Below are positions 6,001 to 47,793 of a stretch of 64,000 bases of DNA, piece after piece. This stretch comes from a virus (taxonomy: Duplodnaviria > Caudoviricetes). The notes below the pieces were generated by a model. That model had not been told where the DNA came from. It searched no databases and worked only from the letters and a program-made list of their open reading frames with translations. The position numbers and the translations under genes were made by a program. Location of the stretch: positions 96,001-160,000 of the IMG/VR virus record IMGVR_UViG_3300014203_000001; one strand, 5' to 3'. The first letter of the stretch is position 1, and each line of letters starts with the position of its first letter.

Positions 6001-9000
6001 CATATAGTTTATAGCATCTTCGAAATCTCTATTACCTCTGAATTCGGATTTGTTTTTATTTTCTTTAGCATATTCTAAAAGAAGTTTTGGATCTAATGAA
6101 GCTTTATCTTTACTAGTTCCAGTTTCGTCCCATAGAGATTTCTTTTTAGCTTCTAAAGCAGCTTTCTCTTTAGTTAGCTTTTCCATTCCTGTTTTAAGTT
6201 TAGAAATTTCTTTTTGAAGAGATTTAGCTTCTTCTAAATCTGCTTTATTTTCATCAGTATTTAGATGAGAATACTCGTCCGATTCTAGGTTAACTTTTGA
6301 TAGATCTGTTACACCAAGAAGATTTTTAAGTTCATCTAAGCGTTTAGTATGTTTAGCTTTCTTAGCAGATATTGCTTTGTCCTCATCAGTTTCAGCATAT
6401 TCATTTATTCTGCTACTAACTTTAGTTATATTAGAATTAGTTTCATCGTATTCTTTACTCTTTTGAGATACTTTATCTTCAGCATTAGTATATATAATGT
6501 CTAACTGCTTCTCTATTCTAGCCCGTTCTTTTGGATCTGTGGTTGAATTTAGTTTATTTAAGAGATCTGCTTCTTTAGATTGTAATTTAGCGTGCAAATT
6601 TTTATACCCAGATATTTTAGAGCTATTAGCCATTGCGGTTCTAAATAATCTGGATTCGTCTAAATGATCTACTCCTGCTTTTTTCTTAGCTGAGGTTAAC
6701 TTCTGTTCATCGGTCTGTTCTCCTAGAACCTGATTATGATAGAATTGGTTGGCATCTTTTTTAGATTTCTGAAGATCTTTCTTAGCTTCTTCATATGCTT
6801 GCTTGAAAGTGTCTTTAACTGCGTCTATAGTTGGTTGTAATATTCCGTTATCTCCCACAAAGAAACCTTTAGCTTTACTAAAAATCTCATCTACATCAAT
6901 ATTAGTATATTTCTTTAAAGCATTCTTTCCAGCTTCCCACATAGACTTTCCACCGAATTTATCTTTAAAAGGTTTTAGTAAAGAATTATCTATCCAATCA
7001 TTTACTTTACCAAAAGTTCCTTTTAATTCAAATACCATTCGGTTGAAGAAACCTTTTACTTTATTACCTTTCTCATCGGTAACGCCAGTTTCTTTACCAT
7101 AGAAGAAATCATATATATTTTGATCTGCTTTGGTAAGCATACCAGTTAGAAGATCTGATGGTTTAGCAGTTAATTTATCTATACCATTTCTAATAACATC
7201 ATACTTAGCTCCCAAAGATCCAGCATGTAATAATTGATCTAAGAAAGTAGCTCCATCTTTCATTTCTGGATTTTCAGATATATTCTTTCTAGCTTTCTTG
7301 GCACTATCTGCCATCATTTTATTAAGCCACGTTTCGTTAGCATCATGAGTTCTTCTATCTTCTGCAAGTTTAGCATTATGAGCATTAGTATATATAGCTC
7401 CAGTAGCGGCAGATGTATCATCCATATATTGATCCACTTCAGCAACTATCTTACCATTGGCTTTGGCTCGTTTAGCATCTTCTTGACTTTTAACTCTATG
7501 CTGTTCATTTAGATTGGCTTCTTGCTCTTCTCTTAACTTAGCATTGGATTTGTCTTTAGGTCCTAATTGTGATTCATAATAGTTCTTCCAATCTTTTTCA
7601 GTGAATTGATTGAAATCTATAGTATTATTATCTGGGGCGAATTTACCTTTCTTTCCTCTGCTTTTTCCACCAATACTACCACCTTTTCTAACTATAAATA
7701 ACTCTTGGTGGATCATTCTTAGATAGTCAAATATATTCTTCTTAAATGGATCTTGTATCTTTAGAAGATTAGAACTATCTCCTAGATTACCATACTTTTC
7801 TTTTATCTCTTGGGTTTTAGAATCTTGCCTAATATGGGAATCCATTCCGTAGTTATTTGTTAGGTTACCATATAAAGAATATCCTTCTTTTTCAATATTC
7901 TCCATATTCTTATTATGCATTTCTCTCTGAGACATTACGTTTCCAGGAGTAGCCATAACAGTTTTACGTTTAAGATTCTTATACATCTCTTGGAGAATTT
8001 TAAAATTGGCTTTGCTTTGTACGCCGTAGTCTGTATGTGCCGATGATTTTTTATTATTAGGATCGAAGAATCCACCGTCATCATATATTTGGGTGAACAT
8101 TGATTGCATATCTTTTAAGAAGGCTTCTTTATCTCTTCTTTCTTTAAAGACAAGAGATTGCATCATCTTTCCCATCTCATCAGATACATCAGACATAGAT
8201 GATTGTACATTACTTTTCTTTATATTAGCGAAAGAAGTTTTTATGCTTTTAGCATCAGTCCATTTACCACTATTATGATCAAAGAATCTTTCGTTCTGAC
8301 CAGACAATAATGCTTCAATTCTTCTAAGATGACCAGGGATTACTTCTACTATACTCTTTTGGGTAATGCCGTTAAAAGGAACTGCTCCCTTTTCAAACTT
8401 AGATGTATCTATAGTATTTTTGACATTATTCTTTACACCAAAGATCTTACCTAAGAATTGTTCCATTGGACTAGCATTCTCATCATTAGCATTTTTATTC
8501 ATCTTAGCAGTAAATGTGGTAAACATACCAGCCATAGTAGAATCGAACTTCTCTAATGCAGTATTTAATTTAGGACCCATCATACTAGATATTAGAAACT
8601 GTGGTATAAATCCTAGAGGATTAGAAGCTAACATCTTTAAATTCTCTTCTGATAACATGCTCATCATGCCACCACTTTGTTCGTTCAAAGTGTTCTTCGT
8701 ATTTCCCCATATGACTTTAGCATAGTTCTTCATATCAGGTATTCCGTTAGCATTGAATACATCATCAATTCTATTAGCTTTCTTCTCTTTCTCTTCTTCT
8801 AACGCAACTTTATATTTTTCTCTTTGCATAGTAACCATTTCTTTAAGAATGGCATTTTGCTCTTGAAGCAGACAAGTAGAAGTTTCAAAGAACTTTTTAG
8901 AATTCTCTACATGGACAGACATAACATCTGTGTTGAATCTGTGGAGAGCATCTACCCCAGACGATAGACTACTAAATCCAGTTTGTAAAGTATTTAGAGT

Positions 9001-42844: not shown

Positions 42845-44074
42845 GTGATAGCATTGAAACGAATGAGTAAAACAATAACCAAGAAAGAAGATATAGATTA
42901 TTTTATTTCATTAGATATGGATACACTAACTAGTCTATCCTTTATAATGGATACATTCGGAGAGTTTGAGAATAAAAGAAAATTTAGTCCATATGATATC
43001 ATAACAATACCAGCTAATTCCTACGGTCCTGAGGGAAAAAAGAACAAGAAACCATTTACAACTACTGTGGGATTATTTATATTCAATAAGTGTTTTATAG
43101 AAAAGGATCTATTTGAACTATTCCAATATATAGACAAACCTGTAGATAAGAAAGTCGCTGGTAAGATTAACTCTAAAATGAGCTATGCTGTATTGGAAGA
43201 TAAGATTACGCTACAAGTTATGAAAGACTATCTGATGAAAACACAAAAGTTCCAACCTTATTCTAATATTCTCTGTCCTAGCGTAACAATGAATATGCTT
43301 CTTATCAGTGATAAGATAGCTAAAAGAAAGAAAGAGCTATTAGATAAAAATAAAGAAGCTATTGCCAAAGGCGATGAGAAAGTAGTAGCCGCAATAGAGA
43401 AAGAACTATTAGATCTTTGTGAAGAATTATTAGCAGATGATCCATCTATGGATCTATACAAATCTGGAGCTAAAGGTTCTTGGGGTAATAACTTTAAGAA
43501 TATCTTTGTAATGCGTGGGGCAATAAAAGATCCAGATCCTACTAAAGGATATGACGTTGTTACTGATAATTATATAGATGGTATTAAGAAAGATGGATAT
43601 AGTACAATGGCTAAATCTCTAGCTGCTGGTCCTTATTCTAGAGCAAAGAAGACACAATATGGGGGTTACTGGGAGAAACTTTTCTTAAGATCTTTTCAGC
43701 ATATAACTCTATTACCAGCTGGTTCTGACTGTGGCACTACAAGAACAATAAATATGACTATTACTGATAAGAATGCTAGTATGCTTATGTATAACTACAT
43801 AGTTAGTGGAAGTAATCTCGTAGAACTGACTTCTGATAACATAGAATCATATAAAGGCAAAACTGTTAAAATGCGGTTCTCTAGTTTATGTGAACATCCA
43901 AAGGGTATATGTAATAAATGTGCAGGTAATCTGTTCTATAGATTAGAAATAACAAATGTCGGTGTAGTAACTCCACAATTAGCATCAAGACTGAAAGTAA
44001 TTGCACTAAAAGCTTTCCATGATAGTCAAGTACAATTACATGAAATAGATGTAGCCAAAGCTTTCGGTATGTAA
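42845..44074 (+). CDS. RNA polymerase beta'-like C-terminal subunit, probably virion RNAP (phiKZ gp80-like)
   Basis: SGAKGS, GGYW.K (bridge helix), DCGT, RFSSLC...ICNKC Zn site, VGV..PQ; TACA-N6-TA at 42829-42840; start may be TTG 42854. Confidence 0.85.
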   Translation: MIALKRMSKTITKKEDIDYFISLDMDTLTSLSFIMDTFGEFENKRKFSPYDIITIPANSYGPEGKKNKKPFTTTVGLFIFNKCFIEKDLFELFQYIDKPVDKKVAGKINSKMSYAVLEDKITLQVMKDYLMKTQKFQPYSNILCPSVTMNMLLISDKIAKRKKELLDKNKEAIAKGDEKVVAAIEKELLDLCEELLADDPSMDLYKSGAKGSWGNNFKNIFVMRGAIKDPDPTKGYDVVTDNYIDGIKKDGYSTMAKSLAAGPYSRAKKTQYGGYWEKLFLRSFQHITLLPAGSDCGTTRTINMTITDKNASMLMYNYIVSGSNLVELTSDNIESYKGKTVKMRFSSLCEHPKGICNKCAGNLFYRLEITNVGVVTPQLASRLKVIALKAFHDSQVQLHEIDVAKAFGM

Positions 44075-44086
44075 GGAGGTTAGAAA

Positions 44087-44274
44087 ATGTGTTGTGATTA
44101 TATATATACCTTGTAGTTGCAGAGTATCCTACTGGTGAGGAGGATAGAGTTATTAAAGTTATTATTGGTGCATTTATTGAAGAAAAAGATGCTAATATTG
44201 CTAGTAAACCAGAGCATAGAAGTATAGTCAAAGTCAAAATGAATGCACTATTAGAAGAAGGAATTATATTATAA
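44087..44274 (+). pseudogene. Small gene frameshifted in a (TA)5 tract
   Basis: AAGGAGG RBS; removing one TA at 44099-44108 gives a 61-aa ORF MCCDYIYLVVAEYP...GIIL* ending at the hairpin. Confidence 0.6.
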
Positions 44275-44275
44275 A

Positions 44276-44308
44276 ATATCCCCAGTGGACATAATCCACT
44301 GGGGATAT
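44276..44308. terminator. Bidirectional hairpin
   Basis: 14-bp stem ATATCCCCAGTGGA/TCCACTGGGGATAT. Confidence 0.75.
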
Positions 44309-44352
44309 CGTTTTTTAAACCGAGAAGAACTTTAAATTAACCTGCGTACTAA

Positions 44353-44469
44353 CCAATTTAGTATACAGTTATATGGACTGCCCATCATATGGGCTTCCTG
44401 CTTCATAAATAAACCTATTGGTCTATCTCGGCAGGCTCAAAGGGTCGTCCCAACCCCATTTATATCTTT
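44353..44469 (-). ncRNA. TnpB omega-RNA (scaffold plus putative guide)
   Basis: GGGTTGGGACGACCC hairpin, CCTGC...GCAGG stem, GCCCA-TATGA-TGGGC hairpin and CAGTCCAT end resemble IS1341/IS605 right ends; putative guide 44372-44353. Confidence 0.65.
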
Positions 44470-44492
44470 ATATCGTAGTATAAGAAATATAA

Positions 44493-45611
44493 TTAAGCTA
44501 CATATCCTAGTCTACCATCCAATATGTTAAGTCCATAATTTACAAGATTCATAGAAGCGTTAAAATCTCGATCATGGAATGATCCACATTCAGGGCATTC
44601 CCATTCTCTAAGATTTAAGTTTTTTACGTCTCTATTACGGTAATTACATACATGGCATAGTTGACTGCTAGGGTAATGTTTATCTGCTATAATTAAATCT
44701 CTACCATAACGTTCAGCTTTGTATTTAAGCATCGTATCAAATTTACTCCATGATACTTCGTGTATGGATTTATTTATTGCTTTGAAAGGCGTAAGCATAC
44801 TGCCTATTCTTAGATCTTCTATAACTACTGTTTGGTTATCACGAATAATTCTAGAAGATAACTTATGAAGAAAATCATTACGTTGATTAGTAATCTTCTC
44901 ATAGCACTTAGCTACTTTAATTCTAGCTTTGTTTCTATTATTGGAACCAAGTTTCTTTCTAGACAATCTTCTTTGTAGTTTAGTTAATTTACTTTGAGCA
45001 TTTCTAAACCATTTAGGATTATCTATAGTTTCGCCATTACTCATAATAGCAAAGTGTTTTATTCCTAAATCTATACCTAAGATATTATTTTGGTAAGTTG
45101 TATACTTTGTTGGTTCTTCCTCTTCTACTAATACTGATATATAATATCTACCATTGGGGTTCTTAGTAATAGTAGCCGATTTTATAATACCATCAAATTG
45201 TCTATCTTGTTTAAATTTAACCATACCAGCTTTAGGTAATCTAATTCTTTTACCTTCTATTCTAATGGCAGTAAAATTATTTATATTGCTAGTACTATAA
45301 GACAATTTAGATAACTTTTTACTTTTAAATTTAGGAAATCCTTTATCCCCTCTATTAAAGAAATTCTTATATGCTTTCTCTAAATTATTTTGAGCATTTA
45401 CTAAAGCAAAAGCATCTACATCTTTAAGAAATTGATATTGCTCTTTGTACTGAGCTGGATGGTTTCTTAATGGTTGTTTGGTTTCTTTATAATAATTTAT
45501 TTTATCTTCAAGCATTTTATTATAAACAAATCTACAGCAGCCAAATGTTTTATCAAATAGATCTATTTGTTCATTTGTTGGATATAACCTAAATTTATAA
45601 GAATTAAACAT
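44493..45611 (-). CDS. tnpB: TnpB RNA-guided endonuclease (IS200/IS605 family), no TnpA
   Basis: YKFRLYP HTH, GIDLG (RuvC-I D), VIEDL (E), C..C...CPEC Zn ribbon, HDRDFNA (D): catalytic triad intact. Confidence 0.95.
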   Translation of the reverse strand: MFNSYKFRLYPTNEQIDLFDKTFGCCRFVYNKMLEDKINYYKETKQPLRNHPAQYKEQYQFLKDVDAFALVNAQNNLEKAYKNFFNRGDKGFPKFKSKKLSKLSYSTSNINNFTAIRIEGKRIRLPKAGMVKFKQDRQFDGIIKSATITKNPNGRYYISVLVEEEEPTKYTTYQNNILGIDLGIKHFAIMSNGETIDNPKWFRNAQSKLTKLQRRLSRKKLGSNNRNKARIKVAKCYEKITNQRNDFLHKLSSRIIRDNQTVVIEDLRIGSMLTPFKAINKSIHEVSWSKFDTMLKYKAERYGRDLIIADKHYPSSQLCHVCNYRNRDVKNLNLREWECPECGSFHDRDFNASMNLVNYGLNILDGRLGYVA

Positions 45612-45702
45612 TTTGATATACCTCCTCTTATTAGAAAGTTATAAGTGTAAAAATCTAGTCTATCTTAATATAAAAAATAGATATAAATATTAGATATGAC
45701 TA

Positions 45703-45718
45703 TATATTATAGAGGTGT
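45703..45718 (+). promoter_or_regulatory. Early-type promoter TATATTAT-N5-TG
   Basis: Upstream of the beta'-N gene. Confidence 0.7.
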
Positions 45719-45753
45719 AAGAGGAATATGATTTTAAGGAGGAGAAATGTGCA

Positions 45754-47793
45754 ATGCAATTAGGAGTAAAACTACAGTATCCGTTTAATGAAGAATTTAC
45801 TTATAGGTCTAGAATCGAAAGAATCGATCTAGATCAAGAAATGGAAAACGACATCGCGACAAACAAAGGGTTCTTTATCAAAGAACCACCACCTATTAAC
45901 AAAGCCTTAAAACGAACAGACTCTATCTATTCTGAGATCTTTATGAAAACTCTACACGATCCAGATGCCTATATGGATCGGTATAGTTGTAAAAGTGGAT
46001 GTACCCAAGGAAGAGGAAACAAAGATTTAATCTGCCCAATATGTAAAACCAAAGTAAAATTCGTAGGTGATGATTTTGAGATATTTGGTTGGATCAGAAT
46101 CAAAGAAGACTACGCTATAATCCATCCGAATCTCTACAAATCTATTGCGTATTTTATTGGGATCGGAACACTGGAGAATATTATCGAACCAGAGATCGAT
46201 CTCGATGTTAATGGTATCGCAGTCGGTAGATATGATAAGAGAATAAGCAAAAAGAAACAAAAGCGTAAGTATAACAAACGTGCAGGAAAAATCGATGAGA
46301 CATTTGCTGGAATTGGAATGATAGAATTCCAACAAAGATTCGACGAAATCATGGATTATTTTCTAACGAAGAACAAGGGAAACAAAAGAGAATATTATGA
46401 TGATATAATGGCTAACAGACATCTTATATTCATACATAATATACCAGTATATTCTACTGGTTTGAGACCATTCAAAACAGAAGGTAAAAGATTTACCTTT
46501 GAGGGAACAAATGCTATATTTAATATCATGGCAAAGCTTGCTGCTATGATAAATAAAGACGACCTTCAACTATATAGAGATAAGAAGTATCGAAATACAC
46601 TTCTATGGGATATGCAAGAAAAGTATAATAAACTCTATTCAGAAATAGAGAATATTTGCTCTAACAAAAAAGGATCTGTTAGAATGCTAGTTGGAGGAAG
46701 ATGTAGTTTTACATCTAGGCTAGTAATCATTCCCGATCATACTCTTAGAGTTGATGAGGTAAAACTTTCTTATTATAGTCTAGTAGAGTTATTACAGCAG
46801 ACTATAATAAATATCTTAGTACGATCATATAATATCTCATATGCAAAAGCATATATGATATTTTACAAAGCACAAGTGGTGCAAAATCCAAGAGTAAGAG
46901 AAATCATCGAAAATCTCATCAGAGCTAATAATGGAATCAATGTTATAATTAATAGGAATGAAATTAGCGTTCCCCTTACAGGTAACTGTGAGTTAACAAA
47001 CCTCTTGAATTGCTGGAAAGTGCTAAAGCCTAGAATAGCTACAACATAATCCGAGAGGATAGGTGTGAATGCCGACGAAAGTCAGAAAAAATATTTTAGG
47101 ATGACCTATTGCTGAAATAAAAGCCCTCTTACGAATAAGAGGGTGCTAAGGGTTATTAACAATGTATAATCAGCAGCTAAGTATCCTATATTTTATAGGA
47201 TAAAAGTTCAACGACCATCCAGAGATATAGGGGCTGAAATACGTCATGAAAATAAGGCACTGTTAACAGCAGTGGACGAATCGAGGAGTAGAGCCTAAGC
47301 AGGTGAGCATTGCTCTTAAATCGAAGGAAGAGGCTTCCGTTATATAACGGAAGATGATATGGTCTGTACATCCAGAGAAAAACTGGAGATGCCTAAATGC
47401 CAATTTAGACTGCGTTGATTAGCGTTCAACGTGAACAATTAGCCTACGATTGCCTACGGCAGTATCTTGGCGATGCGTTGTATTGGTATAAATGATGATT
47501 ACACGATGTCTCTGCCCCTCCAGGTTAATAGCCTATTCGCATCAGACTATGATGGTGATTGTTTAAATATTATCTATATTCCTAATAAAGCGTTCTGGGA
47601 TTCAGCAATGTATTGTTTTAATCCTAGAAATACTATGATGATTTCTAAGAACGATGGGAAGTTTAATAACCAATTGAATATCTATAAAGATATTCTTATT
47701 AATGCAAATGGTTTGATTAATCTATCTAGAGATTATTACACACCAGAGCAGCTTGCTAAGATAGAAGCTGTTAAAGCTAAGTATGGTAACTAA
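45754..47793 (+). CDS. RNA polymerase beta'-like N-terminal/catalytic subunit, probably non-virion RNAP; exons 45754-46959 and 47443-47793 (518 aa spliced)
   Basis: N-terminal Zn finger, KKG..R...GGR..F.SR.VI.PD, spliced NRN|PTI (cf. NRAPTL), catalytic ASDYDGD; early promoter. Confidence 0.9.
46960..47442 (+). ncRNA. Group I self-splicing intron, 483 nt, no homing endonuclease ORF
   Basis: P1 GGAAU/GUUCC with U-G at the 5' splice site; P AAUUGCUGGAAA, Q AAUCAGCAG, P3 CCUCUU/AAGAGG, P7 GACCAU/AUGGUC; terminal G47442; removal restores frame and motif. Confidence 0.92.

Follow-up and report, generated by a model that had tools for sequence, protein, structure and literature searches.

The segment at positions 44373–45703 (minus strand) of the window, that is, of the whole 64,000-nucleotide stretch of phage DNA analyzed here, is an insertion that is absent from the equivalent site of two related phages. 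This 1331-bp element is very probably a selfish, tnpB-only member of the IS200/IS605 family (IS1341-like) with canonical architecture, acquired after the phage lineage had split from its known relatives. By analogy with studied systems, its most likely function would be RNA-guided homing or retention directed against alleles that lack the insertion. The source record contains 245,713 bp, has direct terminal repeats and is rated complete, and the window corresponds to its positions 96001–160000. The genome has a G+C content of 32% and encodes split multisubunit RNA polymerase genes. An earlier note on this DNA had read the element as a domesticated TnpB; the features on which it drew (the ORF, a ribosome-binding site, the motifs AACT-N6-TA and TACT-N6-TA, a hairpin, a terminator and a fold-back) are all present where it had placed them, and it is mainly their meaning that is reconsidered below.

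The tnpB gene (44493–45611, minus strand) encodes a protein of 372 aa, a predicted RNA-guided endonuclease on the basis of Pfam, NCBIfam and alignment to ISDra2 TnpB (8bf8). The ORF matches the Pfam entries OrfB_IS605, Cas12f1-like TNB domain and HTH_OrfB_IS605, and its product scores 464.7 bits against NCBIfam NF038281 (IS200_TnpB), for which the cut-off is 425. The RuvC residues D (in GIDLG), E (in IED) and D (in HDRD) align with the corresponding motifs of 8bf8, and the same alignment reveals the zinc finger CxxC...CxxC; the D-E-D and zinc-finger residues are invariant across the subclade of closest relatives and the outgroups. The intact RuvC triad claimed previously is thus confirmed, and, judged by its sequence, the protein is an IS200/IS605-family TnpB with intact nuclease residues. 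Only one copy of tnpB exists in its own genome. No Y1 transposase (PF01797) was found in the whole 245.7-kb genome, whereas control genomes gave matches, so that the reported lack of TnpA also holds.

The element lies between two RNA polymerase genes, as had been noted. The gene for an RNA polymerase beta-like subunit on one side (42845–44074, plus strand) matches phrog_2962, and that for the first part of a beta-like subunit on the other (45754–47049, plus strand) matches positions 40–380 of phrog_2987, both of which are annotated as RNA polymerase beta subunit. The two related phages, L037 and L038, have the same two genes, with 77–81% protein identity to those of the window, separated by only 616 nt; this interval lacks tnpB and holds a terminator, a promoter and two small ORFs. 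The DNA on either side of the element in the window aligns to this empty interval in L037 and L038, and when all splice points were scanned, the top-scoring one excised exactly 1331 bp. TATAT is common to the flanks and the ends, and the boundary is therefore ambiguous by up to 6 nt; for the placement 44373–45703, the right end was taken from homology with other elements (...CAGTCCAT). No TnpB was found in five related jumbo-phage records, two of which are 100% complete, and a megablast search of 43000–47500 against deposited phage genomes gave no match.

When the flanks are rejoined they read ACAGTTAT|ATATTATAGAGGTG, a perfect early-promoter motif (TTATATATTAT-N6-G), which places the insertion point at the 5' edge of the promoter that serves the downstream polymerase gene. 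The early consensus of Bacillus phage AR9 is AAATATATATTAT-(6N)-G (PMC5312081), and in the present genome the core ATATATTAT-N6-G occurs at 58 sites, compared with about 4.7 expected, mostly just 5' of genes. The core retained by the downstream polymerase gene, as recognized from the rebuilt empty site, is ATATTAT-N6-G at 45704–45717 (plus strand), and the ancestral 5' part, TTAT, is now located across the element at 44369–44372. The promoter reads GACTATATATTAT-N6-G after the insertion; the genome contains two further sites of this form, each no more than 100 nt upstream of a called gene, and the promoter is therefore probably still usable. Across the genome, the full early-promoter motif spans about 24 nt (TTATATATTATATA-RR-TGAGCAAT), with many copies then continuing ...AATAAA-TTGCATC, and the sites are far more uniform than the core alone needs.

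The left end of the element (45612–45703, minus strand) consists of 92 AT-rich nucleotides upstream of the ATG, with neither a TnpA-type hairpin nor a remnant of tnpA; the DNA folds no better than shuffled sequences (z −0.32), in agreement with the absence of a left-end hairpin from the earlier description. At the right end the hairpin GCCCAT-ATG-ATGGGC is present, and it has no similar subterminal counterpart on the left. The left flank ends in ...TAATAT with the 6-nt ambiguity of the boundary, and no consistent TAM motif was found next to the left end across the sister elements. The element is not an autonomous IS605-type transposon (tnpA plus tnpB), since the Y1 (HUH) TnpA is missing. A single copy that lacks TnpA and a left-end hairpin does not allow classical peel-and-paste mobility to be demonstrated.

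The scaffold of the omega-RNA (44373–44457, minus strand), which runs from the GGGG hairpin as far as the right end, was delimited by homology to TnpA-linked relatives and by covariation, and the 5' end of the RNA may lie further upstream. It is homologous along its length to the 3' regions of 11 relatives, TnpA-linked ones included, and the homology of the right ends stops at ...CAGTCCAT. The consensus structure has compensatory changes in 13 of its 21 pairs, and the fold of the single sequence gives a z of −2.34. The exact scaffold word was found in none of the viral contigs searched, and a degenerate version of the word was found only in L049, a TnpA-deleted relative that retains the left hairpin. 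At positions 950–1090 of L049, which is phage-borne, the left-end hairpin is kept and only the last few tnpA codons remain, directly before tnpB. From this arrangement, L049 appears to be an intermediate toward a tnpB-only element.

The stop codon of tnpB (TAA) occupies 44493–44495 and the start of the GGGG hairpin, at 44457, is 35 nt beyond it; the AT-rich spacer between them (44458–44492, minus strand) can itself form an A-U hairpin. This position of the scaffold had been taken as an unusual uncoupling of the omega-RNA from the ORF, on the premise that the hairpin normally overlaps the C-terminal codons of TnpB. The premise does not apply to this clade, in which the hairpin was located in 34 relatives and lies beyond the stop codon in every one of them. 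The distance from stop to hairpin is 11–13 nt in 26 relatives, 20–21 nt in four, and 32–47 nt in the window and in L046, L047 and L048, the closest relatives with a located hairpin. Since the hairpin lies past the stop throughout the clade, the extra AT-rich spacer is the sole special feature, and it is limited to a small subclade.

A separate promoter for the omega-RNA had been proposed within this spacer, at the sequence TACT-N6-TA (TACTACGATATA; 44469–44480, minus strand), 11 nt upstream of the GGGG hairpin. The motif TACT-N6-T[AG] is only 1.3 times as frequent before genes as expected, which is not an enrichment, and TACT-N6-TA is not conserved in the spacers of the sister elements; its presence before the scaffold is no more than chance, and the proposed promoter is not sustained. 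Predicted sigma-70-type promoters in the interval 44000–45900 number nine, no more than in shuffled sequences (11.1).

The motif in front of tnpB fared better. The late consensus of AR9 is AACA-(6N)-TA/G (PMC5312081), and the left end of the element contains AACT-N6-TA (AACTTTCTAATA; 45629–45640, minus strand), a candidate AR9-type late promoter for the non-virion RNA polymerase that starts 29 nt before the ATG. Between this motif and the ATG is the ribosome-binding site AGAGGAGG (45621–45628, minus strand). Throughout this genome, AAC[AT]-N6-TA clusters 26–39 nt upstream of the start codon and immediately in front of the ribosome-binding site, a range that includes the tnpB motif, and within 24–42 nt of the starts AACA-N6-T[AG] is enriched 6-fold and AACT, the weaker variant, 2.7-fold. 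In the sister elements L048 and L130, AACA-N6-TA is located directly before the ribosome-binding site, in the same place as the AACT of the window, and L047 is without it; the late-promoter motif is thus present in three of the four subclade members with a complete 5' region, the window included. TnpA-linked relatives have tnpA where the subclade has this motif. A phage late-type promoter with a ribosome-binding site before tnpB is plausible from these sequence comparisons. Thus, of the proposed control by phage promoters, the part concerning tnpB stands as plausible, whereas the part concerning the omega-RNA does not.

The guide-encoding flank (44353–44372, minus strand; starting ATAACTG) is phage intergenic DNA that can be aligned to L037 and L038 at their empty sites. 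Because the joined flanks rebuild a perfect AR9-type early promoter, the sequence of the guide reads as plain ancestral phage flank, as in canonical TnpB elements. In the aligned sequences, it differs from the empty sites at three of 20 positions (L038) and five of 20 (L037). The guide has no other close match in its own phage genome, and a perfectly matching target was not found among present-day sequences. The earlier suggestion that empty-site DNA might be a target is therefore borne out, in that the guide matches the uninterrupted site of the L037/L038 type; an aim beyond its own insertion site finds no footing in a guide that is continuous with the flank and has no other close match in the genome.

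The guide can fold back on adjacent sequence (4+6 bp), and this had been interpreted as sequestration. The fold-back has a z of −1.47, and 17 of 200 shuffled sequences fold as well; it is no better than chance and sits in flank that is older than the insertion, so that the interpretation is not upheld. The hairpin was also considered as a member of a repeated phage hairpin family and this was rejected: the similar sites, at genome positions 274 and 164672, proved to be ordinary palindromes resembling terminators, and they differ from the 20-nt guide by 3–4 mismatches, three of them within the first 16 nt. The intrinsic terminator hairpin (44276–44308, plus strand; 14-bp stem), said to close the unit, is in the flank, outside the element. 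It belongs to the phage and its upstream operon, not to the element, because the empty site of the relatives has a terminator at the equivalent place, after that operon; it could also stop minus-strand read-through. The guide-encoding flank holds another AACT-N6-TA (AACTGTATACTA; 44359–44370, minus strand), directed away from the early promoter, which is probably there by chance, because neither L037 nor L038 shares it.

Among the matches listed in the protein search, the only proteins more than 60% identical to the window TnpB are P0002–P0005 (61–74%). In a tree of 39 proteins, chosen from the 120 listed by thinning on rank, these four and the window protein are set apart by a branch supported at 100/100. 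A metagenome scan for closer TnpBs gave none above 58% identity. The closest group comprises the window and L046, L047, L048 and L130; their loci and right flanks differ, and their guides differ accordingly. Such varied loci are the opposite of a fixed domesticated locus. At least four members sit on contigs with phage hallmarks like those of this phage, and genes neighboring the elements in L046 and L047 have homologues near 52, 118 and 215 kb of its genome. No tnpA is present on the sister contigs in which the 5' side is available, L046 being 5'-incomplete. The early-promoter motif of this genome is also found downstream of the element in L047, L048 and L130. The idea that the L130 element lies inside an early promoter (shared ATAATAT) was dropped: the conserved left-end block is situated roughly 50 nt deeper inside, and there is no empty site for comparison. 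This TnpB lineage seems to be adapted to this kind of phage.

The TnpA-linked relatives of the IS605 type (for example, L005–L009 and L033; 50–58% identity) have a homologous TnpB, a scaffold with the same helices and a right end that finishes similarly, in ...CA[CT]. They differ in having an IS200-type Y1 transposase directly upstream and similar left and right hairpins, and their stop-to-scaffold gap is 11–13 nt, compared with 35 nt in the window. In ISfinder usage, tnpB-only members of IS200/IS605 form the IS1341 group. The present element resembles that group in having tnpB as its sole gene and no transposase, a label that denotes architecture only and not a match to a curated reference. 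TldR-type exapted TnpBs are nuclease-dead, occupy conserved loci and have guides to non-flank targets. The window protein is likewise a TnpB homologue without a transposase, but its nuclease is intact, its locus is not fixed and its guide is plain flank.

ISDra2 TnpB with its omega-RNA, from Deinococcus radiodurans (8bf8, 8exa, 8h1j), shares the domain order, the D-E-D residues and the zinc finger with the window protein (phmmer E = 2.6e-74), and in both cases the omega-RNA is at the 3' end and the guide comes from right-end flanking DNA. The expected role of ISDra2-type TnpB is vacant-site cleavage (PMC8612924, PMC10690162). In contrast to ISDra2, the window element has neither tnpA nor the left-end hairpin, and its located scaffold is wholly past the stop codon, behind the 35-nt AT-rich spacer; it also resides in a phage and has a candidate phage late promoter, and its activity here is predicted. 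The free-standing homing endonucleases of T-even phages, such as SegF and SegB (PMC13565253), are similar in predicted behavior, with a nuclease gene situated between conserved phage genes. A Seg-type nuclease cuts the allele lacking it in a co-infecting relative, and its gene is copied in by repair (PMC13565253). Here, however, recognition is predicted to depend on a guide RNA plus TAM and not on the protein, and the insertion itself would mark self.

The mechanism that we propose begins with the insertion of the element at the 5' margin of the early promoter that precedes an RNA polymerase subunit gene, with the promoter core spared. Its tnpB would be transcribed late, by the non-virion RNA polymerase of the phage, from AACT-N6-TA in the left end. 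The omega-RNA may be cut from the tnpB transcript, as in ISDra2 TnpB, whose omega-RNA is processed out of that transcript (PMC10278001), or may be made from another start. The guide, being copied from the sequence that adjoins the right end, would therefore match the uninterrupted allele of the same site. The ribonucleoprotein would cleave copies of the site without the insertion in co-infecting sibling genomes, and recombinational repair would copy the element into the cleaved sibling, resulting in homing or retention. A role of this kind is established for IS605-family TnpB (PMC10690162), and the idea of TnpB homing has been carried over, in theory, to phages that co-infect (PMC13565253). 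Where phages co-infect, homing alone could be enough. TnpB-only elements are very common, and their persistence without TnpA is still debated. The locus described here provides a clean filled-versus-empty pair for testing the homing idea, and its remaining interest is a well-supported TnpB subclade without a transposase, dispersed over different loci, in which the promoter motif of the phage's own RNA polymerase recurs.

The domestication put forward in the earlier note would make TnpB a phage weapon against competitor or host DNA, with an omega-RNA that has its own promoter and a guide masked by its fold-back. We regard this as most unlikely. It would fit a nuclease and an RNA that are intact with neither TnpA nor a left-end hairpin, and the carrier phage would gain from cutting insertion-free competitors; however, the guide is continuous with the ancestral flank and has no other target in its own genome. 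The phage-type promoter before tnpB and the extra AT-rich spacer before the scaffold are also in keeping with it, but the scaffold is past the stop codon throughout the clade, TACT-N6-T[AG] is neither enriched nor conserved, and the fold-back is not significant. Above all, the locus is not fixed: an empty-site allele exists in L037 and L038, five relatives are without TnpB, and sister elements are elsewhere. The fixed locus with variable guides that might have been expected among relatives is accordingly replaced by an empty site in L037 and L038 and by sisters elsewhere with other guides. Most of the observations that the earlier note had listed as weighing against domestication were indeed made, namely an empty-site allele in which the guide is flank, and a defined left junction; multiple copies were not among them, the element being single.

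It is also improbable that the element is a stranded, functionless relic, a tnpB-only copy that arrived once, neither moves nor homes, and is undecayed so far. A single copy without TnpA or a left-end hairpin, for which we found no perfectly matching target and no closer relative in any collection searched, would be compatible with such a relic. Yet neither the ORF nor the catalytic residues nor the RNA scaffold shows damage, and the members of the subclade, at 61–74% identity, have an invariant D-E-D and a conserved scaffold, with the late-promoter motif and ribosome-binding site in three of them. That a TnpA-less subclade has diverged while its functional parts are kept argues for long-term selection on function. 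A further and more ambitious proposal is that the closest five TnpBs constitute a TnpA-independent lineage found only in AR9-like jumbo phages, transcribed by the non-virion RNA polymerase from late promoters inside their left ends and persisting purely by RNA-guided homing between co-infecting genomes. We offer this in full only tentatively, as a speculation with the odds against it; if true, the lineage would do with a guide RNA what the Seg and Mob endonucleases do in T-even phages.

Several other observations were made around the locus. The downstream polymerase gene is interrupted: 45754–47049 corresponds to positions 40–380 of phrog_2987 and 47467–47793 to positions 401–471, leaving a gap of 417 nt (47050–47466). 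At E values up to 1, an Rfam search of 44200–47600 gave just two chance-level matches, neither of them to a group I intron or a TnpB-related RNA, and at the gathering score the whole window has zero Rfam matches. Contigs from run X2 (wastewater) are 97–100% identical to 45865–46250, a part of the downstream polymerase gene, and indicate that a close relative of the phage exists elsewhere; they do not reach the junctions of the insertion site. The X1 and X2 contigs are short pieces, two X1 contigs crossing filled junctions and none joining across the element, and are thus uninformative either way on an empty allele in the population. Finally, the small gene after the first polymerase gene (44088–44265, plus strand) looks broken when read by eye, since the ATG at 44088 leads to a stop after nine codons and the frame homologous to the L037 ORF is without a start codon; the C-terminal two thirds of the gene are homologous to that ORF, which encodes 79 aa at positions 7241–7479 of L037.
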